From: a virus
Taxonomy: Duplodnaviria; Caudoviricetes
Virus record (IMG/VR): IMGVR_UViG_3300025572_000020
Location: 1 to 33,480 of that record
DNA: 33,480 nt
Reading direction: 5' to 3' (one strand)
Part shown: positions 5,953-26,278 of the stretch, one piece after another
Layout: every line of letters begins with the position of its first letter
Position numbering within the stretch: position 1 is the stretch's first letter
Made by a program: the position numbers and the translations under genes
Notes under the pieces: model-generated
What the model was told of the DNA's origin: nothing
Seen by the model: only the letters and a program-made list of their open reading frames with translations
Database searches by the model: none

Positions 5953-6207
5953 ATGGCGAAGAAGAACGGCGCCGCGCCGCGCTCCTACAAGGAGCTGTAC
6001 AAGGCGCTGCCCAAGATGAGCGAAGCCGAGCTGCGTGCTGCGATGCAGGAGGAGCTCGACAAACCCAATCCGCGGCCCGATATGCTCGCGCGCATGGTCG
6101 GCCGGTTCAACCGGCTGCGCGGCAACAGAACGATGACGGGCGTTCTGGGGCTTCTGAGCTATAAAGGCAAGCGGAACCTCGATGCGGTGTTGGATAACGA
6201 CGGCTGA
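5953..6207 (+). CDS. Hypothetical helical protein (84 aa)
   Basis: SD GAGGAG. Overlaps the polymerase start. Confidence 0.75.
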   Translation: MAKKNGAAPRSYKELYKALPKMSEAELRAAMQEELDKPNPRPDMLARMVGRFNRLRGNRTMTGVLGLLSYKGKRNLDAVLDNDG

Positions 6208-8200
6208 CTTCGAGACGCGTTCCAGGCTTGACCTCAAGAAAGTCGGGGCGTGGCGCTACAGCACGCACCCGAGCACGACGGTGCTTTGCCTGGCGTACGC
6301 GCTCGATCACGGGCCCATTCGCCTATGGCGACCGGGAGACCCGGAGCCGCGAGATCTGTTCGACGCGATCGAGCAGGGCGCGTTCGTCGAGGCTCACAAC
6401 GCCTTCTTCGAATGGTGCATCTGGCATAACGTCATGGTCGAACGCCACGGATGGCCGCGTCTGCGAATCGAGCGCATCATCTGCTCCGCCGCGCGGGCCG
6501 CATTCTTCTGTCTGCCTCGCGCCCTGGAGAACGCGCTCATAGCCGTCGGCCTTGAGCAGCGCAAGCTCTCGAGCAAGGCGATGCAGAAACTGTCCAAACC
6601 TCGCAAGCCCACGAAGAAGGACAAGAGCGAATGGCATGAGGATCCTAAGCTCTACGAAGAACTGTACGAATATTGCAAGGGAGACGTGCGAGCCGAGATG
6701 GCGCTGAGCGATCACATCGGCGCGCTCCCCCCGTTCGAGCGTCGAGCGTTTCTCGCCGATTTCCGCATCAACCTTCGCGGGATAAGGGTCGACGTCGACT
6801 TCGTCAAGGCCGCCATCGTCGTCGCCGGCATCCTCGAGGAGCAGCTGTGCGAGGAGATGAGCCGCGTCACGAAAGGCCGGGTGACGGCCCCGACGCAGCG
6901 CGACAAGATCATCGACTTCCTCGCTTCGACCGGTCTCGAGCTCGACTCTGTCGACCAGGAGACGGTGGAGGACACGCTCTATCACGCGAAGCTGACCGAG
7001 ACCCAGCGACGCGTCCTGGAGCTGCGTCGGGAAGGCGCTCGCTCGAGCGTCAGCAAGTACAAGGCGTTCGTCGATTGCTTGGACGAGGACGTCGTTCGCG
7101 GTCTCTTCTTGTACTACGGCGCGAACGCTCACGGCCGTTGGGCCGGCAAGCTCATCCAGCCTCAGAACTTCCCGCGCGGCAACGCGAAGAGCAAGGACAA
7201 GGACGAGAAGGGCGGCGAACTGATGGAGCGCATGGTCGCCACGATCAAGATGGCCGCGAAGACTCGAAACGTCGAGATCCTGCGCGAGAACTTCTGGATC
7301 GAGGAGAACGAGATTCCGGGCGATCCGAAGTCGAAGCGTTTTCTCTCCCCGGCCCCGCCGGCGGAAGTGCTCTCGACCGCGTTGCGCGGAGCGTTCATCG
7401 CTCGCGAAGGCAAGACGTTCGGAGTCGGCGACTACGCCGCGATCGAGGCTCGCGTCCTTTTCTGGCTCGCCGACGAAAAGTACGGTCTCCAGATCTACAT
7501 GTCCAACGGCGATATCTATCGCGACATGGGGTCGGTCATCTTCAACAAGAAGCCGGAAGACCTCGACGTCTCGTTCGAACGCATGATGGGCAAGACCACC
7601 GTGCTCGGGTGCGGTTACGGGATGGGATGGCGTAAGTTCAAGCTCACCTGCAAACGGGCGTACGGGATGATCATCTCTGACGAGCTGTGCAAGAAGTCGG
7701 TCTACGCCTACCGCAAGCGGTACGCGCGTGTGCCGAAGTTCTGGGAAGAGCTCGAGGATGCCGCGATCGCCACGGTGCGAACCGGGTTCCCGCACGAGGT
7801 CAGCGACGGGCGCATTCGTTTCTCGATGCGCAAGGGCGATCTGGTGATCCGGCTTCCGAGCGGCCGCGAGATCTTCCACCGCCGCGCTCGCATCGGGCGG
7901 GACGGCGACCTGCAGTTCATCAACGGCAAGGGCTGGGTGGAGAGCACGTACGGTGGGAAGCTGTGCGAATACGTCGTCAGCGGCACGGCTCGCGACCTGT
8001 TGGCCGATGCGATCGTCAAGGCCGAGTTCGAGTACGACGAAATTGAGCCGGTGATGCACTCCCACGACGAACTCGTGGTCGAGGGCGAGCCCGGCAAGGC
8101 GGCGAAGATCGTCGAAGAGATCATGCTCGACGTGCCGTCGTGGGCCAAGGGGTTGCCCATCAAGGTCGAGGTGTGGGAAGGCCCGAGATATCACAAATGA
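6182..8200 (+). CDS. Family A DNA polymerase with 3'-5' exonuclease (APSE/SPO2-like)
   Basis: ExoI DFETRS, AHNAFFE, YCKGDV, GRWAG..QPQNFPR, motif A GDYAAIEARV, motif B RMMGKTTVLGCGYG, motif C HSHDELV. Confidence 0.95.
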   Translation: MRCWITTADFETRSRLDLKKVGAWRYSTHPSTTVLCLAYALDHGPIRLWRPGDPEPRDLFDAIEQGAFVEAHNAFFEWCIWHNVMVERHGWPRLRIERIICSAARAAFFCLPRALENALIAVGLEQRKLSSKAMQKLSKPRKPTKKDKSEWHEDPKLYEELYEYCKGDVRAEMALSDHIGALPPFERRAFLADFRINLRGIRVDVDFVKAAIVVAGILEEQLCEEMSRVTKGRVTAPTQRDKIIDFLASTGLELDSVDQETVEDTLYHAKLTETQRRVLELRREGARSSVSKYKAFVDCLDEDVVRGLFLYYGANAHGRWAGKLIQPQNFPRGNAKSKDKDEKGGELMERMVATIKMAAKTRNVEILRENFWIEENEIPGDPKSKRFLSPAPPAEVLSTALRGAFIAREGKTFGVGDYAAIEARVLFWLADEKYGLQIYMSNGDIYRDMGSVIFNKKPEDLDVSFERMMGKTTVLGCGYGMGWRKFKLTCKRAYGMIISDELCKKSVYAYRKRYARVPKFWEELEDAAIATVRTGFPHEVSDGRIRFSMRKGDLVIRLPSGREIFHRRARIGRDGDLQFINGKGWVESTYGGKLCEYVVSGTARDLLADAIVKAEFEYDEIEPVMHSHDELVVEGEPGKAAKIVEEIMLDVPSWAKGLPIKVEVWEGPRYHK

Positions 8201-8550
8201 AACGCGACCTCGACGCCCCGATCGATCTCAAGCTTCGTCGTCGTCTGACGCGGCGAGAACGTCCGTTCGAGTACGCGCTGCGCGACGAGTTGAAGTTGCG
8301 AGGCGTCGGCTTCGTAAAGCTGAAGCCGACGATCAAGGGCTTCCCCGATCGCCTGGCTCTGGGTAACGGCCGGGCGAAGCTCGTCGAAGTGAAGCGCGAG
8401 GGCGAGGAAGCTCGACGATCGCAGGTCGAGCGTCACAGGGAGATGAGAAAGAAGTATGGCATCGATGTACTAGTCGTCGAAGGTCCTGACGTAAAGAGAG
8501 CGGCGCTCGCGATCGTCAGGGCGCTAGGCATCGAGGATGACTTCGAATGA
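8197..8550 (+). CDS. VRR-NUC domain nuclease
   Basis: KGFPDRL...LVEVKREG...Q motif. ATGA overlap with the polymerase stop. Confidence 0.88.
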   Translation: MKRDLDAPIDLKLRRRLTRRERPFEYALRDELKLRGVGFVKLKPTIKGFPDRLALGNGRAKLVEVKREGEEARRSQVERHREMRKKYGIDVLVVEGPDVKRAALAIVRALGIEDDFE

Positions 8551-9893
8551 AGCCGTTGCTGCGTCACCAGAACGACGCTCTCGCTTTTCTTCGACGGAGA
8601 GGATGGCGCGGCGCCCTGTTCATGGAGCCCGGACTGGGCAAGACACGCGTCGGTCTCGAGGCGGCGAGGCGCGCCCGCCGGACCATCGTCGTGGCGCCTC
8701 TCAACCCGGCGATGTTCGTCTGGCCGGCTCAACATCGGGAGTGGGCTCGCGACCTCTCGTTCGCCCTGGTGCGAGGCTCTCCGAAGGAGCGAGCTCGCAT
8801 CTTGTTCGATCAGAAGCCCGACGTCGCTGTCTTGAACTACGATCTTGTACACTGGCTCTACGACGAAGTCGCCGCGAGGCGTAAGCTGCCGTACGACCTG
8901 CTGATCCTCGACGAGTCGACGGCGGTGAAGTCGCCGTCGTCGGTCACGTTTCGGGCTCTGCGAGCGTTCGAGCCGGCGTTTGACGCAGTGATCCCCATGA
9001 CGGGAACGCCGGCCGAGAACTCGCTGCACGATCTGTGGGGACAGCTCTGGTTTGTCGATCGCGGCGAATCGCTAGGCAAACGGATCGGCGTGTTTCGAGA
9101 GAGATACTGCTCGCCCGTAGTCAGGGAGAATTACACGACGTGGAAGGTGACGCGGGCGCAGGATCTCAGGCGGGACGCCGCGCCGCTGTGTTTCGTCCGT
9201 CGGGCGACCGATTGTTTGGACATGCCGCCGCTGATCTTCAGCGACGTCGTATTCGATCTGACGCCCGCCGAACGTAGGTTCTACGAGACGACGCGCAAGC
9301 ATTGCATCGTCGAGCTACCCGACGAGCCATTCACCTTGGCGAACGCCGGCGTCGCTCTCGACAAGCTCCGGCAGATCACGAGCGGATTCGTGTACGACGA
9401 GGAACGGGTTGCCCACGTCATCGAGCACGTGCCGTCGAAGATACGGGCTCTCGAGGAGGCCGTCGACGAGGCGTTCGGTCGTCCGATCCTCGTGGGTTTC
9501 TGGTATCAAGGCAGCAAACGTCTGATCCAGGCTGCGTTCCCGAACGCCCCTGCGATCGACCGCTTCACCCCGCCGCGGGAGAAGGAACGACTTTTCGCCG
9601 CGTGGTCGAGGGGCGAGCTCCCGATCCTGCTGGGGCAGGTGAAGACGATAGCGCTGGGAATGAACATGCAGTCGCCCGACGCGAGCGTGATCTTCTACGA
9701 CATGCCCTGGAGCCACGGGCAACATTGGCAATTCATCCGAAGAATCTGGAGGCAGGGGCAGGCGACAAAGGTCGTGGTTCGCCGGCTCATCGCCCGACAT
9801 ACGGTCGACGGCTACGTCGCGAGCGTGCTCAAACGCAAACAACAAGCCGAAGACGAACTACTCACAACAATCCTCGAGAAGGAGCTGATATGA
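8547..9893 (+). CDS. SNF2-family (SF2) helicase
   Basis: LLRHQ, MEPGLGKT, ILDEST, MTGTP, LWGQ, KLRQITSG, LGMNMQ, RIWRQGQ motifs. Confidence 0.92.
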   Translation: MKPLLRHQNDALAFLRRRGWRGALFMEPGLGKTRVGLEAARRARRTIVVAPLNPAMFVWPAQHREWARDLSFALVRGSPKERARILFDQKPDVAVLNYDLVHWLYDEVAARRKLPYDLLILDESTAVKSPSSVTFRALRAFEPAFDAVIPMTGTPAENSLHDLWGQLWFVDRGESLGKRIGVFRERYCSPVVRENYTTWKVTRAQDLRRDAAPLCFVRRATDCLDMPPLIFSDVVFDLTPAERRFYETTRKHCIVELPDEPFTLANAGVALDKLRQITSGFVYDEERVAHVIEHVPSKIRALEEAVDEAFGRPILVGFWYQGSKRLIQAAFPNAPAIDRFTPPREKERLFAAWSRGELPILLGQVKTIALGMNMQSPDASVIFYDMPWSHGQHWQFIRRIWRQGQATKVVVRRLIARHTVDGYVASVLKRKQQAEDELLTTILEKELI

Positions 9894-11545
9894 CCGATGA
9901 ACTCTTCGTGTCCCTGGGACACAACTCGTCCGCCGTCTTCGCTCGCGACGGCGTGGTGATACGAGGCTACGAGCAGGAGCGAATCGATCGCAAGAAAAGC
10001 TCGAGCGCCTATCCGCGCGACGCGATCGAGCTCGCCGTCGGAGACGGCGGAGCGGACGTGGCGTACGTGTCGCACTGGTTCGACGACCTGACGCTTCGGA
10101 ACAACAAGTATCTCGATCTCGATCATCTCGAGAGCGTGGCGGGGGTCGTCGTCGGTCTCAACGACGGATTCACCCACCACGATGCGCACGCCCAGTCGGC
10201 GATCTCGTTCTTTGTCAGCAACGGCGGACGGGCCGACGACGCGCACGTCGTCGTCATCGACGGATTCGGCACGAATCAGGAATGCTTCTCGGTCTACTAC
10301 GCGGTGCATCCGTTCACGACGCGGCCGAAGCTGATGCATCGCACGTACGGGTATTCGCGATCCCTCGGGCTGATGTACCAGTACACGACCGAGTACCTCG
10401 GACTGAAACCGAACCAGGACGAATACAAACTCCTCGGCTACGAGGCGCACGTCCTCGAGTACGTGCCGAGAGCCCACCTGATCGGGATCACGGACGCCAT
10501 CCAGCGGCAGGCCGACTTCCACGCTTGGATGATGCTCGACTCGACCGAGAAGCCGTCGTTGCACGGTAAGCTGATCGACTACAACGCGTTGAAATTCGCG
10601 AAGGCGTACTGGTGGGAGATCGCCGATCGCTGGCGCAAGCTCTTCCCGCCGAATCTCCCCGAAGCCGGAGTCAGAGCGTGCGTGGCGTTCTGCGCTCAGT
10701 ACTTCCTGGAGCAGTGTGTCATCATGCTCCTCGAGAGAGCGATCCCCAAGTCGTTCGGGCCGGCGCCTCACCTGATTCTGACCGGGGGATCGTTCTACAA
10801 CGTCAAACTGAGCCGGCAGGTGAAGCTCAGGACCGGCCGCAGGGTCTTCTCTCACCCCCTTGCGGGCGACCAGGGTGCCGCCATGGGGTTTTCCCCCGAC
10901 CTCACCTGCGCCGGTCTGACCTGGGGCGCCAGGACGATCCTGGGACGAGACGGGCAGCTCCCCGTCGGGGTGGAAGTGGTGGACGCGAGCGAATGGGTTC
11001 CCAGGGCGGCCATGCTCCTCGACGAGGGGCACGTCGTCAACGTCGTTCGCGGCGGGATGGAGTTCGGCCCTCGCGCGCTGTGCAACACGACCACGTTCGC
11101 GATGCCGACTCCGGCGATGGTGTCGCTCATCAACCGACTCAACGAACGCGACGACGTGATGCCCATGGCTCCCGTCATCACCCGGCGTCGGGCTATGCAG
11201 CTGTTCCGTCACGACGAGTTGCTCGACGTGCCCGTGAGCGATCGCTTCATGATCACTACGGTCGCGTTCAAGGACGCGCCCTCTCCTCTGCACATGGGCG
11301 TCGCGCACAGGGATCCTCTCGAGGACGTGTGGACGGCGAGACCTCAGATCGTCGACGAGGGCGACGACGTGCACCGGCTCCTGTGCCTGCTGCCCGATCA
11401 GGTGCTCATCAACACGAGCTTCAACTACCACGGCGAGCCGATCGTCTTCACCGAGGACGACGCTTGCCGGACGCACGAGATGCAGTGCTTCCGCGCGCGG
11501 ACTCTCGGTCTCCAGGAACCCACGACTCTGCTGGTGCGATCATGA
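9890..11545 (+). CDS. O-carbamoyltransferase (NodU/CmcH/TobZ family), probable 5-hydroxymethylcytosine carbamoyltransferase
   Basis: ATG 9890 overlapping the helicase stop, 551 aa. GHNSSA, EQERIDRKK, HHDAHAQSA, IDGFG, SLGLMY, EYKLLG, TGGSFYNV, AGDQGAAMG, MEFGPRAL, PMAP, TARPQ, LINTSFNYHGEPIV. Confidence 0.92.
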   Translation: MTDELFVSLGHNSSAVFARDGVVIRGYEQERIDRKKSSSAYPRDAIELAVGDGGADVAYVSHWFDDLTLRNNKYLDLDHLESVAGVVVGLNDGFTHHDAHAQSAISFFVSNGGRADDAHVVVIDGFGTNQECFSVYYAVHPFTTRPKLMHRTYGYSRSLGLMYQYTTEYLGLKPNQDEYKLLGYEAHVLEYVPRAHLIGITDAIQRQADFHAWMMLDSTEKPSLHGKLIDYNALKFAKAYWWEIADRWRKLFPPNLPEAGVRACVAFCAQYFLEQCVIMLLERAIPKSFGPAPHLILTGGSFYNVKLSRQVKLRTGRRVFSHPLAGDQGAAMGFSPDLTCAGLTWGARTILGRDGQLPVGVEVVDASEWVPRAAMLLDEGHVVNVVRGGMEFGPRALCNTTTFAMPTPAMVSLINRLNERDDVMPMAPVITRRRAMQLFRHDELLDVPVSDRFMITTVAFKDAPSPLHMGVAHRDPLEDVWTARPQIVDEGDDVHRLLCLLPDQVLINTSFNYHGEPIVFTEDDACRTHEMQCFRARTLGLQEPTTLLVRS

Positions 11546-11964
11546 GCGAGAGACATTTGCACGACTTCAACCTCATGATGAACGCCGTCAGGGCGTTCCA
11601 GAAGAAATTCAACCAGGAATACTCCGGCCCGCCTCGCGAGATGCCGGCGTCCGTGGCGTCACTCCGAAAGAAGCTGACGCTGGAGGAGGCGACCGAGCTC
11701 GTGCTCGCGATCGACCGAGGCGAGCTGGACGAGCAGCTCGACGCGCTCATCGATCAGCTCTACGTCCTGATCGGGACCGCGCTGCAGCTCGGGTTCACCC
11801 CTGACATCGTCGTCGCGGCGTTTTGGCGGGTGCACCACGCGAACATGCAGAAGGTGCTCGCCCCGTCGCGACAGGCGTCCAAGCGCGACAGCGCGTGGGA
11901 CATCGTGAAACCTGAGGGCTGGGTCAAGCCCGATCTAACAGACTTAGTGAGGAGAGAACAATGA
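11542..11964 (+). CDS. MazG-like/PRA-PH all-alpha nucleoside triphosphate pyrophosphohydrolase (probable dCTPase/dUTPase)
   Basis: ATG 11542 (ATGA overlap), 140 aa. LRKKLTLEEATEL...LDALIDQLYV...VHHANMQK...KPEGW..PD. Confidence 0.85.
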   Translation: MSERHLHDFNLMMNAVRAFQKKFNQEYSGPPREMPASVASLRKKLTLEEATELVLAIDRGELDEQLDALIDQLYVLIGTALQLGFTPDIVVAAFWRVHHANMQKVLAPSRQASKRDSAWDIVKPEGWVKPDLTDLVRREQ

Positions 11965-12479
11965 TCATCGTCGAGGGGTTCGACGCGTCCGGCAAAACGA
12001 CTCTGGCCAACGAGATCGGGCGCGTGATGGGCTGGCAGGTGCTGCACACCGGGGGTCCGACTCGGAACGAGGACGACGTCTACGCGTGCCTGTTCCGGAG
12101 CTGCCAGCGCATGCGAATGAAGTGCGTGCAGGATCGAATCACGCACATCAGCGAGAGCGTGTACTCGCTGCTCCACAATCCGGCGAAGGCGGCGATCGCC
12201 ATCGACGCGCTGAGGGACATCCGCGCGCCGACGATGGTCGTGTATTGCCGGCCGCCCGACGAGACGCTGCTGAAGGGCGTGCTCGAGGATCACAGGCGCA
12301 AGGCACACGATACGGACGAGCACATGGCCCGTGTGCTCGAGACGGCACCGGCGCTCATCAAGGCGTACGACACGATCATGGAGATCGTGGCGCTGAGAAA
12401 CAAGATCGTTCGCTACGATCGCACGGTTCAGGGCGACATGCAGCGGGTTGTCGAGATAGCTACGAGGTGGTTCCAATGA
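11961..12479 (+). CDS. P-loop deoxynucleoside monophosphate kinase (thymidylate-kinase-like)
   Basis: MIIVEGFDASGKTT P-loop, QDR...SESVY motif, VVYCRP strand. Confidence 0.85.
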   Translation: MIIVEGFDASGKTTLANEIGRVMGWQVLHTGGPTRNEDDVYACLFRSCQRMRMKCVQDRITHISESVYSLLHNPAKAAIAIDALRDIRAPTMVVYCRPPDETLLKGVLEDHRRKAHDTDEHMARVLETAPALIKAYDTIMEIVALRNKIVRYDRTVQGDMQRVVEIATRWFQ

Positions 12480-13306
12480 CGAGCGTATTCGAGAACATCG
12501 ATCAAGCGTTGAGCCACGCGCTCGACCAGGTGATGACGCGCGGCCAGGAGTCGGCGCCGCGAGGCAAACGGGTCCGGGAGCTGATCGGCGAGGCGATCTC
12601 GTTCGACATGCGCTACCCGATCGTGACCAAGCCGTCGCGAAAGATCGGCTATCGGTTCTATCCGGCGGAGGCTGCGTGGATACTAATGGGAAGAAAAGAC
12701 ATTCAGTATTTCAGAGACAAAAACATGCCCTTCATCTGGCAGTTCAGCGATGATGGCTTCTTCTACGACGGCGCGTACGGCCCGCCAGTCGTCGAACAGT
12801 TAAGCTATGTCTGCGATATGCTATCCGATGATCCCGACACCAGGCAGGCTGTCATGACGATATGGCGACCTAATCCTCGACCGTCGCGTGATATCCCGTG
12901 CACTCTGTCATACCAATTCATCGCTCGCGACGGCATGCTTCACTGCATCCAGTCGATGCGTTCGAGCGACGTGTGGCTCGGCTATCCTTATGACGCGTTC
13001 AACGCTGCGATGTTGACGACGTACATCATCCTCTTGCTCCGCGAACGGGCGAAACGCGGCCGCAAGGATCTGAAACTCGGGTATCACACACTCATGGTCG
13101 GGAGCCAGCACATCTACGAGCCCCAGTGGCAGAGCGCCCTCGACTTTGTGTACGACAACGATGTCGCGACGTACGCACCCATCGATCCGTCGAAGTTCGA
13201 AACACCGCAGTCGCTTATCAACTATCTGGATCTAATGGCTTCGAAACCGGATGGCGTGAATCCGCGCAAGAACGCTGTCAAGGTTTTCGAGCCGCGCAAT
13301 CCCTAA
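12476..13306 (+). CDS. Thymidylate-synthase homolog, probable dCMP hydroxymethyltransferase
   Basis: ATG 12476, 276 aa. AEAAWIL, GAYG, DTRQAV, catalytic DIPCT (Cys142), MRSSDVWLGYPYD with Asp173 at the E. coli ThyA Asn177 position, SQHIYE. Confidence 0.88.
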   Translation: MTSVFENIDQALSHALDQVMTRGQESAPRGKRVRELIGEAISFDMRYPIVTKPSRKIGYRFYPAEAAWILMGRKDIQYFRDKNMPFIWQFSDDGFFYDGAYGPPVVEQLSYVCDMLSDDPDTRQAVMTIWRPNPRPSRDIPCTLSYQFIARDGMLHCIQSMRSSDVWLGYPYDAFNAAMLTTYIILLLRERAKRGRKDLKLGYHTLMVGSQHIYEPQWQSALDFVYDNDVATYAPIDPSKFETPQSLINYLDLMASKPDGVNPRKNAVKVFEPRNP

Positions 13307-13312
13307 AGCATC

Positions 13313-13345
13313 AGGGGCCCGGATTCTCCGAGGCCCCTTTTCTTT
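13313..13345 (+). terminator. Rho-independent terminator ending the replication/modification operon
   Basis: AGGGGCC-CGGA-ttc-TCCG-AGGCCCCT followed by TTTCTTT. Confidence 0.8.
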
Positions 13346-13371
13346 GCCTACTATAGACTGCGTAACACTTT

Positions 13372-13460
13372 TCATAATTTTGCAGTTTACAAGCTCTTCG
13401 CTTTTGCAACAGAATGCTCTCCGTGGTCCGGGATGGTCCTGGACCCAAAACGGAGGAATC
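13372..13460 (+). promoter_or_regulatory. Putative sigma70-like promoter and structured 5' leader
   Basis: TTTACA(13386-13391)-N18-CAGAAT(13410-13415). A downstream hairpin pairs CTCCGT with ACGGAG over the SD. Confidence 0.55.
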
Positions 13461-13463
13461 GAT

Positions 13464-14555
13464 ATGAAGACTGGACTCTCACTGACCGAGCTGGCGAAAG
13501 AGCTCGAGCGTCGTCGCGAAGCCAAGGCTGACTTCATCGCGCCGATCTCGAAGCTCAAAGTAGCGGTCGGTTCGGACAAGAGCCCGATCGTCGTGCTCGA
13601 TGAGAAGATGACGTTCGACATCAACAAGGTGGCTCACGAGCAGCTCGCCGACTACGCCGGCATCCCCATGGCGTACTACCGCCGGATGCTCGAGAACGAT
13701 CCCGAGCTCCTGGCCCACAACGTGAACCGCTGGCTGAGCGATCGCGCCGACGAGCGTCGCATGGTTCGCACCCTCGACGGCCAGGTGCGCGCCGTCCTCT
13801 CCGACAAGTACCGAGCCCTTGAGAACGAGGACCTCGCCGAAGCCGTCCTACCGGTCCTGATGGAGCGCAATCTCCTGATCATGAGCTGCCATGTGACCGA
13901 GTCGCGCCTGTACATCAAGGCGGTCGATCGCAAGATCGAGAAGGACGTGCCTACCGGCCGCAGGTTGGGCGACGGCAGCAACGTGTTCTTCGACACGCTC
14001 TCGCCGGCCATCACGATCTCGAACTCGGAGGTTGGTCGTGGATCCCTGCTGATCGAGACGGGCGTCTTCACGAAGGCCTGCACGAACCTGGCGACCTTCG
14101 AGACGAAGCTTCGCAAGTTCCATACGGGCGCACGGGCCGAGCTGAGCGATCAGGTCTACGCGCTCCTGACCGACAAGACGAAGCGCCTCACCGACGCCGC
14201 GCTGTGGTCGCAGACGCGAGACCTCGTGGCCGCCGCGTTCGATCAGGCGAAGTTCGAGGCGCTCGTGGAGAAGATCGGCGAGGCGTCCCAGGACAAGCTC
14301 CCCAAGAAGGCTGACGTCGTCGAGGTCGTCGAGCGGGTGGGCAAGAAGTTCGGGCTTGCCGAGGGCGAGCGCAAGGGCGTGCTCCAGACCCTAATCGAGG
14401 GCGGCGACATGACACGCTACGGGGTGCACGCCGCGATCACCCGCTACAGCCAGGAAGTCGAGGACTACGACCGTGCGACCGAGCTCGAGCGGATGGGCGC
14501 ACGTATCATCGATCTCTCCCGCTCAGAATGGAAGCAGCTCGCTGAGGCCGCCTGA
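13464..14555 (+). CDS. DUF932-like phage/plasmid protein
   Basis: SD GGAGG, ATG 13464, 363 aa. RAVLSDKY, ISNSEVGRGSL, CTNL, RKFHTG motifs. Confidence 0.75.
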   Translation: MKTGLSLTELAKELERRREAKADFIAPISKLKVAVGSDKSPIVVLDEKMTFDINKVAHEQLADYAGIPMAYYRRMLENDPELLAHNVNRWLSDRADERRMVRTLDGQVRAVLSDKYRALENEDLAEAVLPVLMERNLLIMSCHVTESRLYIKAVDRKIEKDVPTGRRLGDGSNVFFDTLSPAITISNSEVGRGSLLIETGVFTKACTNLATFETKLRKFHTGARAELSDQVYALLTDKTKRLTDAALWSQTRDLVAAAFDQAKFEALVEKIGEASQDKLPKKADVVEVVERVGKKFGLAEGERKGVLQTLIEGGDMTRYGVHAAITRYSQEVEDYDRATELERMGARIIDLSRSEWKQLAEAA

Positions 14556-14568
14556 TCGGCCTTCCTCC

Positions 14569-14606
14569 GGAGCCCGGTGGTTATGAGACGCCGGGCTCCC
14601 CTTTTT
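14569..14606 (+). terminator. Rho-independent terminator
   Basis: GGAGCCCGG...CCGGGCTCC stem followed by CCTTTTT. Confidence 0.7.
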
Positions 14607-14629
14607 AACCTGACACAGGAGCGAAGAAA

Positions 14630-14827
14630 ATGAACAACCCGATCGCAGACCAGATCGTCGACACGCTGACGAACCTGCGGCGCGAGGTCTTGACCAATGG
14701 CATCACGGTCGAAGCCGACGTCATGTGGCGACACGCGCTGTCGCTCTACCGCATGCGGCGCGACTCGTTTTCGGCCATGCCAGAGCCGGCGGAGCTGTCG
14801 ATGTTTCTCCGTCCGCAGGCGGGCTGA
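14630..14827 (+). CDS. Hypothetical protein (65 aa)
   Basis: SD AGGAG upstream of ATG. Confidence 0.7.
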   Translation: MNNPIADQIVDTLTNLRREVLTNGITVEADVMWRHALSLYRMRRDSFSAMPEPAELSMFLRPQAG

Positions 14828-15190: not shown

Positions 15191-16099
15191 ATGCCGAGAG
15201 ATCCGCCCATCAGCGAGACAGCGACAATGAGACCGAGCATCGATCGATACTTCATCGACATGTCGAGGCTGGTCGCCAGTCGAAGCACGTGCGTCAGGCG
15301 AGCCGTAGGATGCGTGCTCGTCGACCGACACAACCACGTCCTGGCGACCGGGTATAACGGAGTGCCGGCAGGGCAGCCACATTGCAACGACGTAGACGTC
15401 GCCGCCGGCGTCGTTTACTTCCCGCACGCGTGCGCGGGGGCAAGCGCGAGGTCAGGGCAGAATCTGGATGCCTGCCACGCCGTGCACGCCGAACAGAACG
15501 CGGTGCTGCAGTGCCCGGACGCCCACGCGATCAAGCGCGCGTACGTCACCGCGTTCCCGTGTCCGAGCTGCACGAAGCTCCTCCTCAACACTTCCTGCGA
15601 GGAGATCGTCTACGACCAGGAGTACGGCGACGACGCCGGCCGACTGCTCTGGATCGCCTCGGGTCGCCTCGCCCGAGCGTTCGACGGCGAACCGCCGATG
15701 ATCCAGAGGGACCTCGTCCGGCTCTTCGGGCCCGACGACCCGCTCAACGAATGGCGGGTGGTGGTCGCCTGCGTGTGCTTGAACGTCTGCTCCGCCAGGA
15801 TCGCCAGGGGCGTCGTGATGCGGCTCCTGGAGCGATGGCCTACGCCCGCATCGCTGGCGATGGCGGGGCCCGACCTGGAGGCGATTCTGAAGCCTCTGGG
15901 TATGAGCGAAAAAAGAGCCGAAACGTTGCGCGGTCTCTACAAAGCTTGGGGTAAGATGCCCCTCGAGGAAATCCCGGGCGTCGGACCCTACGCGGTCGAG
16001 AGCGTCCTGGTGTTCTGCCGAGGCGAGATCCCGCAGCGGATCTGCGACCGGAAGGTCGCGGCGTGGGTAGACTGGAAGCGGAACACCGAAAAACTGTAG
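15191..16099 (+). CDS. Fusion of dCMP deaminase (N-terminal) and MBD4-like HhH-GPD DNA glycosylase (C-terminal)
   Basis: RSTCVRRAVGCVLV, ATGYNG, HAEQNA, PCPSC deaminase motifs. Then in frame from about 15698: MIQ, WRVVVACVCLN, LKPLGM..KRA, EIPGVGPYA.ES..FC, D-RK...W. Alternative start at 15227. Confidence 0.85.
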   Translation: MPRDPPISETATMRPSIDRYFIDMSRLVASRSTCVRRAVGCVLVDRHNHVLATGYNGVPAGQPHCNDVDVAAGVVYFPHACAGASARSGQNLDACHAVHAEQNAVLQCPDAHAIKRAYVTAFPCPSCTKLLLNTSCEEIVYDQEYGDDAGRLLWIASGRLARAFDGEPPMIQRDLVRLFGPDDPLNEWRVVVACVCLNVCSARIARGVVMRLLERWPTPASLAMAGPDLEAILKPLGMSEKRAETLRGLYKAWGKMPLEEIPGVGPYAVESVLVFCRGEIPQRICDRKVAAWVDWKRNTEKL

Positions 16100-16784: not shown

Positions 16785-16834
16785 AGGCGCGACGCGCCGC
16801 TCTAGATTCGACATCAACTCAGGAGTTCACTGAC

Positions 16835-17251
16835 ATGGCAACGAAGAAAGCATCCAAGAAGGCGACGAAGAAGGCCGCGACGAAGAAGGCCCCGGCGAAG
16901 AAGGTCGCGAAGAAGCTCGACGACAAGGCGCTGGCCGCCAAGCGCAAGAACCGCGATTCGATCGCGCAGTACATCAAGGACCAGATCGCCGCCGGCGAGA
17001 CGGACGTCGACGCGATCCTCGAGTCTGCGAAGAAGGAGTTCCCGGGCAAGAAGCCGACGCGCGGCTACGTGCGCTGGATCGCCAGGCACCAGATGGGCAA
17101 GGAGCTCGGCAAGGCGAAGATCGCTTCGAAGGCTCCGGCGAAGAAAGCCGCGAGCAAGAAGAAGGCCTCCGCGAAGACGAGCGAGCCCGCGACGCCCGCC
17201 CCCAAGGTCGACGACACGGGCTCCCAGCCGGCGGTGGACCTGGCGTCATGA
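16835..17251 (+). CDS. Lys/Ala-rich histone H1-like DNA-binding protein with a small central globular domain
   Basis: SD AGGAG, ATG 16835. KKA/TKKA/PAKK repeats flank DSIAQYIKDQI...YVRWIAR. Confidence 0.8.
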   Translation: MATKKASKKATKKAATKKAPAKKVAKKLDDKALAAKRKNRDSIAQYIKDQIAAGETDVDAILESAKKEFPGKKPTRGYVRWIARHQMGKELGKAKIASKAPAKKAASKKKASAKTSEPATPAPKVDDTGSQPAVDLAS

Positions 17252-21071: not shown

Positions 21072-21943
21072 GACGCAGGCACCGTAACGCCAAACAGATC
21101 AGCCTCGTCCGCGGCGACGATTTTCACGGTGAACGTGCCGCCCGGAGGGATCACCAACGTGCCTCTGGCGGGCGGGTTAATCGTGAACCCGGCGCCGGCC
21201 GTGATGGTGAGCGTGCCCGACCCGGCGTAGCGCCCGTGGTACTCCGCGCCGATCACCCAGGGCTCGCTGCCCGAGAAGTGAAACTCGGCGGCTGCGTGCG
21301 TGAACCGCATGTAATTGCCGAAGACTCCCGCGAGCGCGTTGGTGAACTGATCGGGGACGTCGATCACGGGGGCGTACTGGGGAACGCTGTTGAGCGTCAC
21401 GACGCCGGGCGATACCGGCACGATCTGCAGTCCGTCGCCCACCAGGAGCGTGTGCACGTTCCCCGCGCTCACCGTGGGCGACGAATCCGTATCCTGCACC
21501 GTCAGGAGGCCCGTCAATGCCTCCCAGACGGCGTTGCGTCGAACGTATCGCTGCCCGTCGGCCGGCGCGTCGCCCAACCCCGCCGCCAGGACCCACGATC
21601 CCGGCGAGCCGGGGACAAACTTGTAGAGACCGCCGTCGGAGAGATTCAGGCAGAAGAAAACGTTGACGCCCGGCTCGAAGAACTGCCAAAAGTTGCCCTT
21701 ATCGACGAACCTCGCGAGCTGGAGTTCGTGCCCGGCCCAGGCGCCCGTCGCGACGCCGCCCTCCCCGGCGACGATGTACTGCTCGCCGTCGTTGGCAGTC
21801 GCGGGAGGCTCGGTCAGGCTGATCGACGTGACGGCGCACTGCGTCAGCGCGTCGAGAAAGTTCAGCGCCAAATTGAGACCCGCGGCGGGATCCAACGTGC
21901 CCTCCGGCACGAACGGGAGTCCGATCCTCGGTGTGTTGCTCAT
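21068..21943 (-). CDS. DUF2793-domain tail fibre/adaptor protein
   Basis: TPRIGLPF, LNLALNFLD, PPATANDGEQYIV..ATGAWAGH, DAPADGQRYVRRNAVW motifs. Confidence 0.85.
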   Translation of the reverse strand: MSNTPRIGLPFVPEGTLDPAAGLNLALNFLDALTQCAVTSISLTEPPATANDGEQYIVAGEGGVATGAWAGHELQLARFVDKGNFWQFFEPGVNVFFCLNLSDGGLYKFVPGSPGSWVLAAGLGDAPADGQRYVRRNAVWEALTGLLTVQDTDSSPTVSAGNVHTLLVGDGLQIVPVSPGVVTLNSVPQYAPVIDVPDQFTNALAGVFGNYMRFTHAAAEFHFSGSEPWVIGAEYHGRYAGSGTLTITAGAGFTINPPARGTLVIPPGGTFTVKIVAADEADLFGVTVPAS

Positions 21944-23646
21944 GCGATTGTGACCTCCGCCGCCGGGCCCTCGCCCGTCAGATCGTTCAGCTGATAGACT
22001 CGAATGTTGATGGGCGAGCTCAGACTCGAGACGTCCTGCGTCAGCGACTGCGCTTGGGTATCGATTTCGAGCTCCGTGTCGCCATCATCGAAGACGACGC
22101 GGTACCCGGCAAACCTCGAACCGTGCGCTACGGCTGCCCCTCCGCCCAGTCGACCCACGCCCTGCCACGTGACGAGCACGTTGTTCGCGTCGACTCGTCG
22201 CGCCGACAGGTATCCTACCCGGCGTTCGACCTGGGTGTTACCTCGAAAGACGAGACTCACGACCGTGCCCGTTTCGGGCGACGTTCCGAAGCTCGTCGCG
22301 CGGAACGTCAGCGTGCGCCCGATGTCGGTGATGCTCCCCACCTGGAAGCTGATGAACCCGCGCTCGAGGAGCACGAATCGCTCCCCCGGCGCGTGCGCTC
22401 TCGGCTCGGTGCCCTTCCGGCCGCGCAGCAGATGGCCGATCGTCCACTCGCCCTCCGTCGTCTCCTCCGCGTCGCCGAAGTTGATCAGCTCGAACCCGTC
22501 CTCGAGAGTCCCCACGGCCGCCAGGTTCTCGCGGTTGAGCAGACCGGTGAGCGTAGTGTCGAAGAGCTCCGCGTTGGGCGTATCGATCCGAACGCTGCAC
22601 GTGTTGTGCGTGTCAGGGAACTCAGCCGGGTGATCGCCCAACGGCGTGATCAGCTCGCCCATGACGGCGCTGATCCGACTCTCGCCCGACTCCACGTAGT
22701 TCTGACCCCCGTCGTAGCTGAGCTCGATCAGGCACCCGTTCCACGCCGGGAAGATGCCCGACACGGCGATATAAATGCCGATGCCGAGGTTATCGTCGGC
22801 GTCTCGCATCAGCTGAATGTCGAGCGGCGCGATGAGCGTCGGGCCTACGATGCTCGAAGGCGGCGGCGTCTGGGGCGCAGGCGGGATCCCCTCGATGTTT
22901 AGGTTCGTGAGCGAATACGCGCTCTGCCTGTCGCGCAGACACGTGTACTCCTGATACCCGTCGAACACGTCGACCCGTACGATGCGCACCCGCTCGGTCC
23001 GGCCCTGCCACTGCACAAAGATAATGTCGGCCGGAGTCAATCGGATGTACTTGTCCGGAAGGGAGAACTTCAGCTCCCCCTTCTGATTCTCGATCATCAC
23101 CTTGTGGTTGATGTGAACGACCATCGCCGCTTCGTCGGCCGTCATGAGCACAGCCGTTTGAAGCGAGACCTCGCCCGTGGCGCGCCGGTCGCCCGATCGC
23201 TCGCTGGTCTGCTTTTCCGGAGCGATGCCGCCGTGGACGTCATGGTAGTTCAGATGCAGCACTCGCGGGATCTGAATCGAGTCGGCGCGCTTCGTCTGCT
23301 CGATGTCCTGATCGTCGTCGAGCATTTCGTCCTCTGTTACCGTCAGCACCGCATTCTTGCCGCGAGTCACGAAGTGGAGCTGACCGTCGTAGTTGGCCGG
23401 GTCGAAGAAGTAGATCTGCGCCAGAGCGCGCAGCGCCTCCGACGCAGGGTACTGGTTCGTCACCGCGAATCCTCGCACCGGGAGCTCGCACAGATCGCCC
23501 ACGTCAACGTGCCGCGGGTCGAGCCCGGCGCGGATGCAGATCTCCATCACGACGCCGGCGAGGGAGTAGACGCACGACGGCCCGGCCTCGGGCGTGTTGG
23601 CGCCCGCGTAGATCTCTCGTGCGAGTGCGTCCTTCAGCTCAGCCAT
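21940..23646 (-). CDS. Central tail/host-specificity protein, C-terminal part (GTA megatron / Phage-tail_3-like)
   Basis: EICIRAGL, FFDP..DGQLHF..RG, GFELINF, LLRGRKGTE..AH.PGERFVLL motifs. Confidence 0.85.
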   Translation of the reverse strand: MAELKDALAREIYAGANTPEAGPSCVYSLAGVVMEICIRAGLDPRHVDVGDLCELPVRGFAVTNQYPASEALRALAQIYFFDPANYDGQLHFVTRGKNAVLTVTEDEMLDDDQDIEQTKRADSIQIPRVLHLNYHDVHGGIAPEKQTSERSGDRRATGEVSLQTAVLMTADEAAMVVHINHKVMIENQKGELKFSLPDKYIRLTPADIIFVQWQGRTERVRIVRVDVFDGYQEYTCLRDRQSAYSLTNLNIEGIPPAPQTPPPSSIVGPTLIAPLDIQLMRDADDNLGIGIYIAVSGIFPAWNGCLIELSYDGGQNYVESGESRISAVMGELITPLGDHPAEFPDTHNTCSVRIDTPNAELFDTTLTGLLNRENLAAVGTLEDGFELINFGDAEETTEGEWTIGHLLRGRKGTEPRAHAPGERFVLLERGFISFQVGSITDIGRTLTFRATSFGTSPETGTVVSLVFRGNTQVERRVGYLSARRVDANNVLVTWQGVGRLGGGAAVAHGSRFAGYRVVFDDGDTELEIDTQAQSLTQDVSSLSSPINIRVYQLNDLTGEGPAAEVTIA

Positions 23647-23649
23647 GTT

Positions 23650-24237
23650 TTACACCGATGCAGTCGAGAGTTGAAACTGCATGCGCCACACTCGGTTCAT
23701 GCCTATCTGGATTAAACCGGCCGGGCCTACGCCGTCGAGCAGATCGTATTCGACCGTATAGCGATCTCTCTGCGCCCTAAAGTACAGATGACCGCCACGA
23801 ACATAAGCAAGAATGATGTCAGATACGTCGATCTGTGAGTCGCGGTTATCGTCAAGGGCGCAGCGCGGCGTGATCGAGCCTGCGGGCAGATCAAGCGTCG
23901 TGAAGCCCGGGATCGTCGAATCGAACCAATAAAAGTGCGATGAGCCTGAGGCGAGCTGATAGGCGATCGCGACTCTCATGTTCTGATCAAACGTGAAATC
24001 AAAGTTCACAACATCAGCGATCGTCAGCACTGTCTGCGGCGCAACGCCGTCTGCAGACAGGACGATGCTCCCATCGAGATATTCTCCTCGCCATACGCGC
24101 ACGCGCAATCCCTGCGAGGGATCGTTCAGAGCGACGCCTCCGTACTCATACGAGACAAGAGGCTGCCTCGGAATGTTTCGTGGAAAACGAAACTGCGCCG
24201 GGAAGAACTCTGTTGATAGTACGTGATCAGGTAGCAT
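23650..24237 (-). CDS. Tail-tip accessory protein
   Basis: ATG 24237 (MLPDHVLS). YEYGGVALNDPSQGL, FDQNMR, DIILAY...RAQRDRY motifs as recalled from proteobacterial siphophage tail genes. Confidence 0.7.
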   Translation of the reverse strand: MLPDHVLSTEFFPAQFRFPRNIPRQPLVSYEYGGVALNDPSQGLRVRVWRGEYLDGSIVLSADGVAPQTVLTIADVVNFDFTFDQNMRVAIAYQLASGSSHFYWFDSTIPGFTTLDLPAGSITPRCALDDNRDSQIDVSDIILAYVRGGHLYFRAQRDRYTVEYDLLDGVGPAGLIQIGMNRVWRMQFQLSTASV

Positions 24238-24239
24238 GA

Positions 24240-25295
24240 TCAAATCGCTCGACGCGCCCACGACTGACGGAAATTCAGAGTCAAGATGTGCGAATTTGTT
24301 TTCGCAATCACCGGGTTCAGAGAGAACTGATACGCTGCGCACGCGCTGCCACCGCTACCTGGGAGGGTGCGTCCATATCCGGCTGCCACACGAACTGCCG
24401 CTATACCACCAGCCGCGTTTCCCTCGTTCAGGCCCCAGACGCCGAAAAAATCTTGAAAGAAAGTGCCGTTGATATACGCAGCGTTGCCCGACGACGTTCC
24501 GCTGCTGAGACCTGTACCGCTCGGAGAACCCGTAATCGGGCCGAGCACACTCGTCGACGGATACACCTGATGGTGGCCACTGTTGGCAAAACCGAAGGTA
24601 CCCGGGTGCCCCATGCGAACGTTCCAGTCAATACTGCCACTACCCGGCCGCCAGAGATTACTGGTGCCATCCATCTCGGCGGGTCTCAGCACGATGTCAT
24701 GACTCTGGCCGGAAATCAGGATCGACGTGTTGACATCCGACGTGTCGCCGGGGTAGAAGCGCACTCGATAGGTCACGTCCAAAAACTCATCCGCCAAAAC
24801 GGTGAGCGTTGTCGGATTGCCGCTGCCATCGAGAATCAGCGCACGACTGTACGTCGTATAGGGACTGCTGGAACGCGTCGCTCCCACTTCCGTCAGGTTG
24901 CCTTGCGCGACGCCCTGCGCAAAGCGCAGCGTCTTCTCGACCCAACGATAGAAGTCGGGATCTCCTGGCGAGCCGCTCTGACCTTCCTGAGAGGACTGAA
25001 CGGTAGTCGTAGTCGCGACTCGCGCCGCCAGCGTCGTATCGGTATAAGCGGGAGGCGTGTTTCCCGTGCCTACGGAGATCGCGTTGAAGGTTGTCGTACC
25101 GCTATGCGCATCGTTGAGCCCGACATTCGTAATCAGGTTATGAAAGAAGCCGGTATCAACACGGCATTGACCATTCGGTCGAATAGCCCGAAGTCGAAAC
25201 TCCGCAGCGAGACCGACCTTCATTGTGAGCGGATCACGAGGTTCGAGAATTTTCGCTTTCGGAATCCAGAGATGCGGTGTCTGTCGAATGCTCAT
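24240..25295 (-). CDS. Ser/Thr/Gly-rich virion structural (tail) protein
   Basis: FHNLITNVGLN, VGTGNTPP..TDTTL, GNLTEVG, SRALILD..GNPTTLTVLADEFLDVTY, C-terminal SWAR. Confidence 0.75.
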   Translation of the reverse strand: MSIRQTPHLWIPKAKILEPRDPLTMKVGLAAEFRLRAIRPNGQCRVDTGFFHNLITNVGLNDAHSGTTTFNAISVGTGNTPPAYTDTTLAARVATTTTVQSSQEGQSGSPGDPDFYRWVEKTLRFAQGVAQGNLTEVGATRSSSPYTTYSRALILDGSGNPTTLTVLADEFLDVTYRVRFYPGDTSDVNTSILISGQSHDIVLRPAEMDGTSNLWRPGSGSIDWNVRMGHPGTFGFANSGHHQVYPSTSVLGPITGSPSGTGLSSGTSSGNAAYINGTFFQDFFGVWGLNEGNAAGGIAAVRVAAGYGRTLPGSGGSACAAYQFSLNPVIAKTNSHILTLNFRQSWARRAI

Positions 25296-26278
25296 TCAAG
25301 TGTGCCTCCCAATACTGCGAAACCCAGATCCAGAGCGTCGTCTGGATTAGTGTACGTGATCAGCGCCGTATCCAGCGTGCCGTCAATCACTGCAAAGTCT
25401 AACTCAAGCGCATCGTTCTCCATCGTATATGCGACCAGAGGCGTCACGAGCGTGCCGTCAATGACAGAGAACGAGATGTCGACGGCATCATCGCCTATCA
25501 CATAGCTAGCGACCGGCTCAACAAGCGATCCGCCGAGTACGGCAAAGCTCAGATCGATGTCGTCGCTCGGCGGCGTCCACACAGACGGGTCTAGCACATC
25601 AAAGGACAATGAAACTGCATCTTCTGATTCGATCGGATATGGGCGCGACGTGACGAAGAATCCCTCGCATCGCTCGACCTGAAACATGTACTGCGGGATC
25701 GCGCCTCGCAGGTCAGTGAGTTCCTCGTCTTCCATGACCATGTACGCCGTGCCGCGGTGCGCCGGCGTCGTGCCGACCCCGAAGATCTTCTCGAGAGCGG
25801 GCGACGGGTTCTGGTCCCACGTCCCCAGGAAGAAGCGGGCGTGCTTCAGGAACTCCGCGTTCTCCTCTTGCGTCAGCAGAGGGAACTCGCTCGCGTCGTA
25901 TACGAGCGTGTTATTGCGCCAGACCCGAACGAATCGCGTGATCGGTCCCTCGCACACGCCGATCGCATACGTGCGATAGACGTGCTCGGTCTCCACCTTC
26001 GGACCGCCCTTGCCCTGACGTTTCCGCTTGCGTACGATCTTCGGTTCGCTGCTCGCGATGATGTTGCCCGCCATCGGCGGCGAAAGCGCCCACACGATCG
26101 GACGAGGCATGCCCTCCATGCTCGTCTGCTTCGCGATATCGCCGATGCTCGGTCCCTTGATGACCTGAGGATCGATCGCGCCGCCGATCGCCGAACCGAT
26201 CGCGTAGCCGAGCTGCGGAAAGCCGAAAAATCCGCCAACGACTGCGCCTGCTGCGCCGAGAATTTCTGACGTCGACAC
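25292..26278 (-). CDS. Central tail/host-specificity protein, N-terminal part, with acidic C-terminal repeats
   Basis: GTG start. GAAGAVVGG..GYAIGSAIGG, AIGVCEGPI, PAHRGTAY, IPQYMFQV, then TSRPYP and repeats of D-x-[VIL]-x-[LI]-x-F-x-V-[LI]. Confidence 0.8.
   Translation of the reverse strand: MSTSEILGAAGAVVGGFFGFPQLGYAIGSAIGGAIDPQVIKGPSIGDIAKQTSMEGMPRPIVWALSPPMAGNIIASSEPKIVRKRKRQGKGGPKVETEHVYRTYAIGVCEGPITRFVRVWRNNTLVYDASEFPLLTQEENAEFLKHARFFLGTWDQNPSPALEKIFGVGTTPAHRGTAYMVMEDEELTDLRGAIPQYMFQVERCEGFFVTSRPYPIESEDAVSLSFDVLDPSVWTPPSDDIDLSFAVLGGSLVEPVASYVIGDDAVDISFSVIDGTLVTPLVAYTMENDALELDFAVIDGTLDTALITYTNPDDALDLGFAVLGGTLE

Follow-up and report, generated by a model that had tools for sequence, protein, structure and literature searches.

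The stretch analysed here, referred to below as the window, is the IMG/VR record IMGVR_UViG_3300025572_000020, one 33,480-base partial contig of a tailed phage, and the system in question is a four-gene cassette at 9890..13306. It encodes a carbamoyltransferase, a MazG-like nucleotide pyrophosphatase, a nucleoside-monophosphate kinase and a thymidylate synthase (TS) homologue (Table 1). Together with the phage family A DNA polymerase (PolA), this four-gene operon probably replaces cytosine in the phage DNA with 5-carbamoyloxymethylcytosine, giving restriction-resistant DNA. The left part of the window holds a primase, an exonuclease, a single-stranded DNA (ssDNA)-binding protein, PolA, a VRR-NUC protein and an SNF2 helicase, and all six junctions from the polymerase to the TS gene are ATGA overlaps (at 8197, 8547, 9890, 11542, 11961 and 12476). 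The terminator-like hairpin that follows the TS stop has a folding energy of −22.4 kcal/mol (z −3.5; 0 of 200 shuffles equally good), although it was not included among the 18 sites of a consensus terminator scan. In GC and third-position GC content the carbamoyltransferase, MazG-like and kinase genes match the replication genes, and the TS gene is lower (0.57 versus 0.62-0.64).

The original prediction had placed the four genes here, chained by ATGA overlaps to the polymerase, VRR-NUC and helicase genes and followed by a terminator, and had reported Asp in place of ThyA Asn177 in the TS homologue (Asp173). Each of these points held. It had also called the cassette complete, which is an overstatement because the deoxycytidine monophosphate (dCMP) deaminase of the published gene set lies outside 9890..13306; this enzyme is part of a deaminase-MBD4 fusion (15227-16099) that the prediction had missed.

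Table 1. Genes and features of the replication operon and the downstream fusion gene.
Feature	Position	Strand	Evidence and remarks
Family A DNA polymerase	6182..8200	+	PF00476, phrog_17; same operon, ATGA overlap with next gene
VRR-NUC-type endonuclease	8197..8550	+	phrog_93, E 3e-13
SNF2-type helicase	8547..9893	+	PF00176, PF00271, phrog_62; overlaps carbamoyltransferase start
NodU/TobZ-fold carbamoyltransferase, 551 aa	9890..11545	+	PF16861 E 3e-25, PF02543 E 4e-15
MazG/PRA-PH-like all-alpha dNTP pyrophosphatase, 140 aa	11542..11964	+	PF01503 E 2.5e-12
P-loop nucleoside-monophosphate kinase, 172 aa	11961..12479	+	phrog_761 thymidylate kinase E 6e-16; NMP-kinase fold
Thymidylate-synthase homologue, 276 aa	12476..13306	+	PF00303; dCMP hydroxymethylase signature
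Intrinsic-terminator-like hairpin (13313-13338) and T-tract	13313..13345	+	closes operon, after TS stop
dCMP deaminase-MBD4-like HhH glycosylase fusion	15227..16099	+	deaminase ~aa 1-150, glycosylase ~aa 158-290

Residue signatures of the cassette enzymes

A sewage-phage carbamoyltransferase was found to convert 5-hydroxymethylcytosine (5hmC) to 5-carbamoyloxymethylcytosine in vitro (Yang et al. 2021, eLife; PMC8670742; statements from this and the other papers cited refer to the sections of them covered here). That enzyme used ssDNA and 5-hydroxymethyl-dCTP (hm-dCTP), was several-fold less active on double-stranded DNA (dsDNA) and was inactive on 5m-dCTP and hm-dUTP. The same study flags TobZ positions W408, G421 and R423 as linked to DNA modification, and reports that such carbamoyltransferases most commonly have TS, PRA-PH and dCMP deaminase genes as neighbours.

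The window carbamoyltransferase is full length, contains both family domains and keeps the metal and catalytic residues; H11, K36, H96, H100, D124 and D327, the His/Asp metal sites among them, are invariant across 60 homologues. V385, C398 and T400 occupy the three flagged TobZ positions, where the characterised enzyme has I, C and T (a comparison made by eye only). The TS gene is 0.9 kb away (within the 3 kb used here as criterion), the PRA-PH gene is adjacent and the dCMP deaminase lies 3.7 kb downstream. Homologues are numerous: of 7,999 candidates scored, 1,229 have an E value no higher than 1e-30, and 12 of 50,697 deposited phage records match at 35-36% identity over nearly the full length. 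On these features the enzyme is predicted to convert 5hmC to 5-carbamoyloxymethylcytosine.

In the TS homologue, residues E65, D139, C142, T143, D165 and D173 correspond to ThyA E58, L143D, C146, H147T, D169 and N177D. At these six columns (58/143/146/147/169/177) the window reads EDCTDD, identical to T4 gp42 at 6/6, compared with ELCHDN in ThyA, ENCPDD in the Xp12 methylase and EDCNDN in the SPO1 gp29 dUMP hydroxymethylase. Published determinants are D177 for dCMP, also reported in PMC5175136, an acidic residue at 143, which serves water activation, for hydroxymethylation, and an Asn replacing D169 for 5-hydroxylation (PMC13326640, PMC6400193). Because D177, an acid at 143 and D169 are all retained, 5-hydroxymethyl-dCMP (hm-dCMP) is the predicted product. 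The best PDB match is the CMP hydroxymethylase MilA (E 4e-18), and on sequence we take the protein to be a probable functional counterpart of gp42 without classing it as an orthologue. The full hydroxymethylase signature is present in 75 of the 85 carbamoyltransferase loci with a complete TS, and N177 in none (0/85). DHFR, which adjoins the TS in Xp12 and Donnerlittchen, was found neither in the partial window nor in any carbamoyltransferase locus. A TS-seeded scan of viral contigs returned one short match.

A quick TS tree (80 rows, comprising 66 kept of 99 locus sequences and 14 references, with SH-aLRT support only) grouped the window TS, at 98% support, with those of AXL3, HTVC119P and two spring-water phages and with five copies linked to a carbamoyltransferase; Xp12, T4 and Xp15 fell outside this clade. 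AXL3 DNA resists 35 of 37 restriction enzymes, including all those with G/C sites (PMC7504290).

Other TS variants occur among the carbamoyltransferase loci. A second, degenerate paralogue without Glu58 is found in loci of Bacteroides-phage type (L009 at 11456-12262, L023-L029, L036, L040, L041, L044 and L045), 19/85 loci include a TS copy in which residue 169 is Asn, the signature of 5-hydroxylases, and in L001-L005, L077, L081 and L101 the carbamoyltransferase stands beside a variant with Gln58 and Glu169, with no canonical TS in view. Avoidance of methylase-type TS did not differ between carbamoyltransferase loci (0/85) and the methyltransferase loci described below (0/53).

The MazG-like protein is a predicted dNTP pyrophosphatase, plausibly for dCTP, dUTP or both, and shares 36% identity over 118 aa with the enzyme encoded next to the Xp12 TS. 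The kinase carries a P-loop and a DR motif, with G6, D8, G11, K12 and R59 invariant in 47 sequences; its model (pLDDT 93.9) resembles the folds of YorR, thymidylate kinase and deoxynucleoside kinases, with TM scores of 0.60-0.69. Gene position points to hm-dCMP as its predicted substrate. In L014, the closest viral relative, an extra small ORF that looks MazG-like by eye (11390-11734) overlaps the TS stop; it has no significant Pfam match and is absent from the window.

Gene order in related loci

We surveyed six matches, the best 80 of 113 viral matches, the best 80 of at least 555 metagenome matches and four deposited phages, dropping 17 duplicate loci before counting. A TS was in view in 81 of 90 non-redundant loci with a T/S423-type carbamoyltransferase versus 0 of 52 R423-type (TobZ-like) loci; with at least 3 kb of flank on both sides the counts were 67/70 and 0/12. 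MazG was detected in 29/90 T/S423-type loci by a window-seeded profile that may miss distant members. The search for the same four-gene order, suggested with the original prediction, found it kept in every locus that has all four genes (28/28).

The deposited Xanthomonas phage Xp15 and Acinetobacter phages Effie and MD-2021a also have this order, with carbamoyltransferase, MazG, kinase, TS and dCMP deaminase genes following one another downstream of a helicase, so the base is directly testable in their virion DNA. A literature search on Xp15 and carbamoyl modification found no paper. Their carbamoyltransferases are 35-36% identical to that of the window; they differ in that the deaminase is adjacent and unfused, an extra gene lies upstream and the TS is only 22% identical. 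Effie, Xp15 and Bacteroides phage BF503P1 carry the same carbamoyltransferase type, two of the three in the same gene order. The extra gene encodes 270 aa and lies directly upstream of the carbamoyltransferase (8171-9001 in L008, Xp15 gp40; 8169-8984 in L007, Effie). It matches nothing in Pfam or NCBIfam, has homologues in 29 loci and is missing from the window.

In other loci a SAM-dependent methyltransferase (Methyltransf_23) lies upstream of MazG, kinase, TS and deaminase genes (L011 4668-5492, AXL3 gp31; L012 4951-5847; L172 4766-5515), and the same family occupies the carbamoyltransferase slot in 49 of 70 non-redundant loci among L175-L254. The TS of Methyltransf_23 loci is of hydroxymethylase type in 53/53 cases, and no TS locus had both methyltransferase and carbamoyltransferase. 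These findings point to a slot in which hypermodifying enzymes can be exchanged, and to O-methylated 5hmC as an undescribed base.

A deaminase-MBD4-like fusion and other genes of the window

The fusion gene lies 1.9 kb downstream, with no stop between its deaminase and glycosylase domains, both of which were identified by sequence matches and by fold. Structures resembling the model (pLDDT 91.5) are those of dCMP deaminases and of MBD4, the latter also in complexes with G:T and G:hmU. By profile the glycosylase domain matches MBD4 (E 1e-21) far ahead of EndoIII (2e-6) and MutY, and its fold superposes on MBD4 with TM 0.75-0.81 over the target. The fusion protein had 984 matches as a query; among the 120 listed the first 60 are fusions, 56 of which cover at least 96% of the query. 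The zinc ligands are kept in 60/60 of these homologues, the glycosylase catalytic Asp in 59/60 and the HhH Tyr in 57/60. The two closest loci, L014 and L088, carry both cassette and fusion, and for 11/60 fusion proteins the longest contig has the same size as that of a close carbamoyltransferase homologue, an indirect sign of linkage. A frameshift artefact was ruled out by the 56 full-length homologues and the two independent loci.

With mammalian MBD4, a glycosylase of G:T, G:U and G:hmU mismatches, the window protein shares the HhH fold, the profile and the catalytic Asp; it differs in having no methyl-binding domain, in being fused to a dCMP deaminase and in the residue at the presumed Arg finger. 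The Arg that follows Asn in helix 1, which we take to be the MBD4 R468 finger facing the orphan G, is Leu/Val in 58/60 homologues, so the specificity of the glycosylase may differ. Q160, considered as what is presumably the Gln of the MBD4 T/U pocket, is kept in 59/60, but its distance from the conserved Trp is 6-8 residues greater than in MBD4.

The fusion is restricted to this lineage and conserved there. No deposited phage covers 80% of it. The glycosylase part alone matches 16 deposited records, 13 of which are Xanthomonas, Stenotrophomonas or Janthinobacterium phages, including the 5-methylcytosine (5mC) phage Xp12. Xp12 resembles the window in having a stand-alone MBD4-like protein adjoining a block of MazG-like enzyme, D177 TS and dCMP deaminase (29% identical to the window deaminase). 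It differs in that its TS is a methylase (N143, P147) with an adjoining DHFR, it has no carbamoyltransferase and its glycosylase is unfused. A role of the fusion as a core part of the pathway was ruled out, as an MBD4-like domain occurs in 3/90 carbamoyltransferase loci and in 1/70 loci around related deaminases. In another carbamoyltransferase phage (L059, 3647-4060) a stand-alone MBD4-like glycosylase gene lies upstream of the helicase. The supplementary MetaGPA table of PMC8670742 has HhH-GPD without enrichment (1 vs 231), a null qualified by the window domain scoring below the Pfam HhH-GPD cut-off. Literature searches combining MBD4 with phage terms found no description of a deaminase-MBD4 fusion.

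Between the cassette and the fusion, a 363-aa gene (13464-14555, +; phrog_1362, DUF932-like) stands between two terminator-like hairpins; L014 and L088 have conserved copies of it, and no link between this gene and the cassette was shown. A lysine/alanine-rich histone-like ORF (16814-17251, +) is conserved at the DNA level in the same two loci. To the right in the window lies a tail block, which comprises tape measure and tail tube genes and baseplate genes resembling those of gene transfer agents (GTA). Here phrog_4271, a GTA-like tail protein family of 1,309 positions, is matched by two separate ORFs (21940-25295 and 25292-26278, −), with a tail-fibre-like gene between them. No tRNA genes were found in the window, and no clear avoidance emerged from palindrome counts, which were considered uninformative. 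L255, a 6.4-kb contig, is 99.8% identical to positions 8323-14708; Sinobacteraceae as host was rejected, since this assignment rests on the metagenome-bin label of that small phage contig and is not host evidence.

A predicted route to 5-carbamoyloxymethylcytosine and its alternatives

From gene identities, translational coupling, residue signatures and synteny we infer the following route. The TS homologue would convert dCMP to hm-dCMP, as its residue signature suggests, and the kinase would form hm-dCDP, from which a host kinase would make the triphosphate. The MazG-like enzyme would drain dCTP, and probably dUTP too, to the monophosphates. Using ATP and host carbamoyl phosphate, the carbamoyltransferase would carbamoylate the hydroxyl group, most likely on hm-dCTP or on ssDNA at the fork, because the published enzyme favoured both over dsDNA. 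Co-translated PolA would then incorporate the modified dCTP to give a modified, restriction-resistant genome. The product and enzyme roles proposed in the original prediction are supported by the published in vitro pathway, by D143 and D169 of the TS, by the clade residues of the carbamoyltransferase and by synteny with its internal control.

Gene set and base have both been known since 2021, and the cassette is one more example of that pathway: the PF02543 and PF16861 enzyme, its clade residues, the neighbouring D177 TS, PRA-PH and dCMP deaminase are all shared with it. The window differs in having a kinase and a deaminase-linked glycosylase domain, neither of which appears in the main text of PMC8670742 (the word kinase occurs there 0 times), and in a TS of the AXL3-like instead of the Xp15-like clade. 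The fusion sets it apart as a variant of the 2021 pathway. With the T4 pathway (gp42, gp1, gp56, cd and glucosyltransferases) the window has in common the signature of pre-replicative hm-dCMP synthesis, a kinase, a dNTP pyrophosphatase and a dCMP deaminase. It differs from T4 in its carbamoyl instead of glucosyl group, family A polymerase, thymidylate-kinase/YorR-fold kinase and divergent TS, and in that no phage dTMP synthase is in view.

Several observations weigh against the predicted replacement of cytosine by 5-carbamoyloxymethylcytosine. The comparison of carbamoyltransferase motifs with the characterised enzyme was by eye only, and TobZ K443 is N418 in the window, though by eye Asn is common to the active enzyme. 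Identity between the TS and T4 gp42 is as low as 19%, and its clade in the tree includes no enzyme whose product has been measured. The window TS has Gly99 where gp42 has Ser94, two residues before the catalytic Tyr; Ser94 is part of the proposed hydroxymethylase signature, but SPO1 gp29 also lacks it and an S94A variant kept ~25% activity (PMC6400193). The nearest structures to the MazG-like protein are 3nl9 and DR2231, which cleaves dUTP among numerous dNTPs (PMC5122711), and because the match is to PF01503 and to such a dUTP cleaver, dCTP removal is only plausible. Two of the dropped duplicates (L067 and L100, with C421 and R423) do carry a TS, so the R423 control is clean only for the strict G421/R423 type (0/41). 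No capsid or terminase genes were seen among Pfam and phrog matches in the partial window, and further modifying genes may thus lie outside it. Finally, 5-carbamoyloxymethyl-dC in native phage DNA was found neither in the sections of PMC8670742 covered nor in a literature search conducted mostly without subscription papers; in this literature the base was made only in vitro.

Replacement might instead be partial, with the MazG-like enzyme serving as a dUTPase or hm-dUTPase that guards against deaminase products, dCTP persisting and the DNA mixing C, 5hmC and carbamoylated 5hmC. The modest share of T/S423-type loci with a detected MazG (29/90, by the window-seeded profile) would fit such a mixture, as would the in vitro conversion of ~60% on hm-dCTP and 70% on denatured DNA (PMC8670742). 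However, PRA-PH is strongly enriched in contigs surviving selection against unmodified-C DNA (50 vs 179, corrected p 1e-45; MetaGPA table of PMC8670742), and a MazG homologue adjoins the TS of Xp12, a phage that replaces all C. We regard partial replacement as unlikely. It is distinctly improbable that hm-dC DNA is made while the carbamoyltransferase acts on a glycan or protein, as proposed for Nol-like cyanophage enzymes, or yields an intermediate for a gene outside the window. NodU/TobZ enzymes do use many hydroxyl acceptors (TobZ, GdmN and NovN are among the matches), the window is partial, and the 270-aa gene of Xp15/Effie-type loci implies possible additional steps in relatives. On the other side, the clade residues match those of an enzyme specific for 5hmC, the TS linkage is confined to this carbamoyltransferase clade, and translation of the gene is coupled to that of helicase and MazG.

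The TS could also make 5-methyl-dCMP (Xp12 type) or 5-hydroxy-dCMP (RB69 type), leaving 5mC or carbamoylated 5-hydroxycytosine as the final base, and its Gly at the Ser94 position, the N169 copies in 19/85 loci and the best deposited matches of the MBD4-like domain, to Xp12 and similar phages, lean that way. Yet position 143 holds D139 (Asn in Xp12), no DHFR is present and the Xp12 TS falls outside the window clade, on which grounds a dCMP methylase was rejected; a 5-hydroxy-dCMP synthase (RB69/DLP3 type) was rejected on D165 at position D169, which is Asn in the hydroxylases. As the published carbamoyltransferase is also inactive on 5m-dCTP, we consider either product very improbable and retain hm-dCMP as the predicted one.

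For the fusion, a housekeeping role is most likely, supplying dUMP and repairing deaminated cytosines. The deaminase would feed dUMP to the host thymidylate synthase, because the phage TS cannot make dTMP, and the MBD4-like domain would remove the U or hmU-type bases that deamination leaves opposite G. The fusion could instead be a deaminate-and-excise weapon shredding host or competing DNA with C, 5mC or uncarbamoylated 5hmC, to which the carbamoylated phage genome would be immune. This idea arises because ssDNA is a substrate of related phage dCMP deaminases and because carbamoylation shields 5hmC against APOBEC3A (PMC8670742); some such 5mC/5hmC-selective (mSCD) deaminases are blocked by bulky C5 groups, and the mSCD trait is called polyphyletic (bioRxiv 2024.12.05.627091). 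We hold the weapon to be improbable; if true, it would be a natural self/non-self system based on a hypermodified base.

The presence of the cassette alone, being known, would not surprise a specialist. An enzyme that tells modified cytosines apart could serve epigenetic sequencing, and the deaminase-MBD4-like fusion would reveal the means by which a phage keeps its genome fully C-modified.

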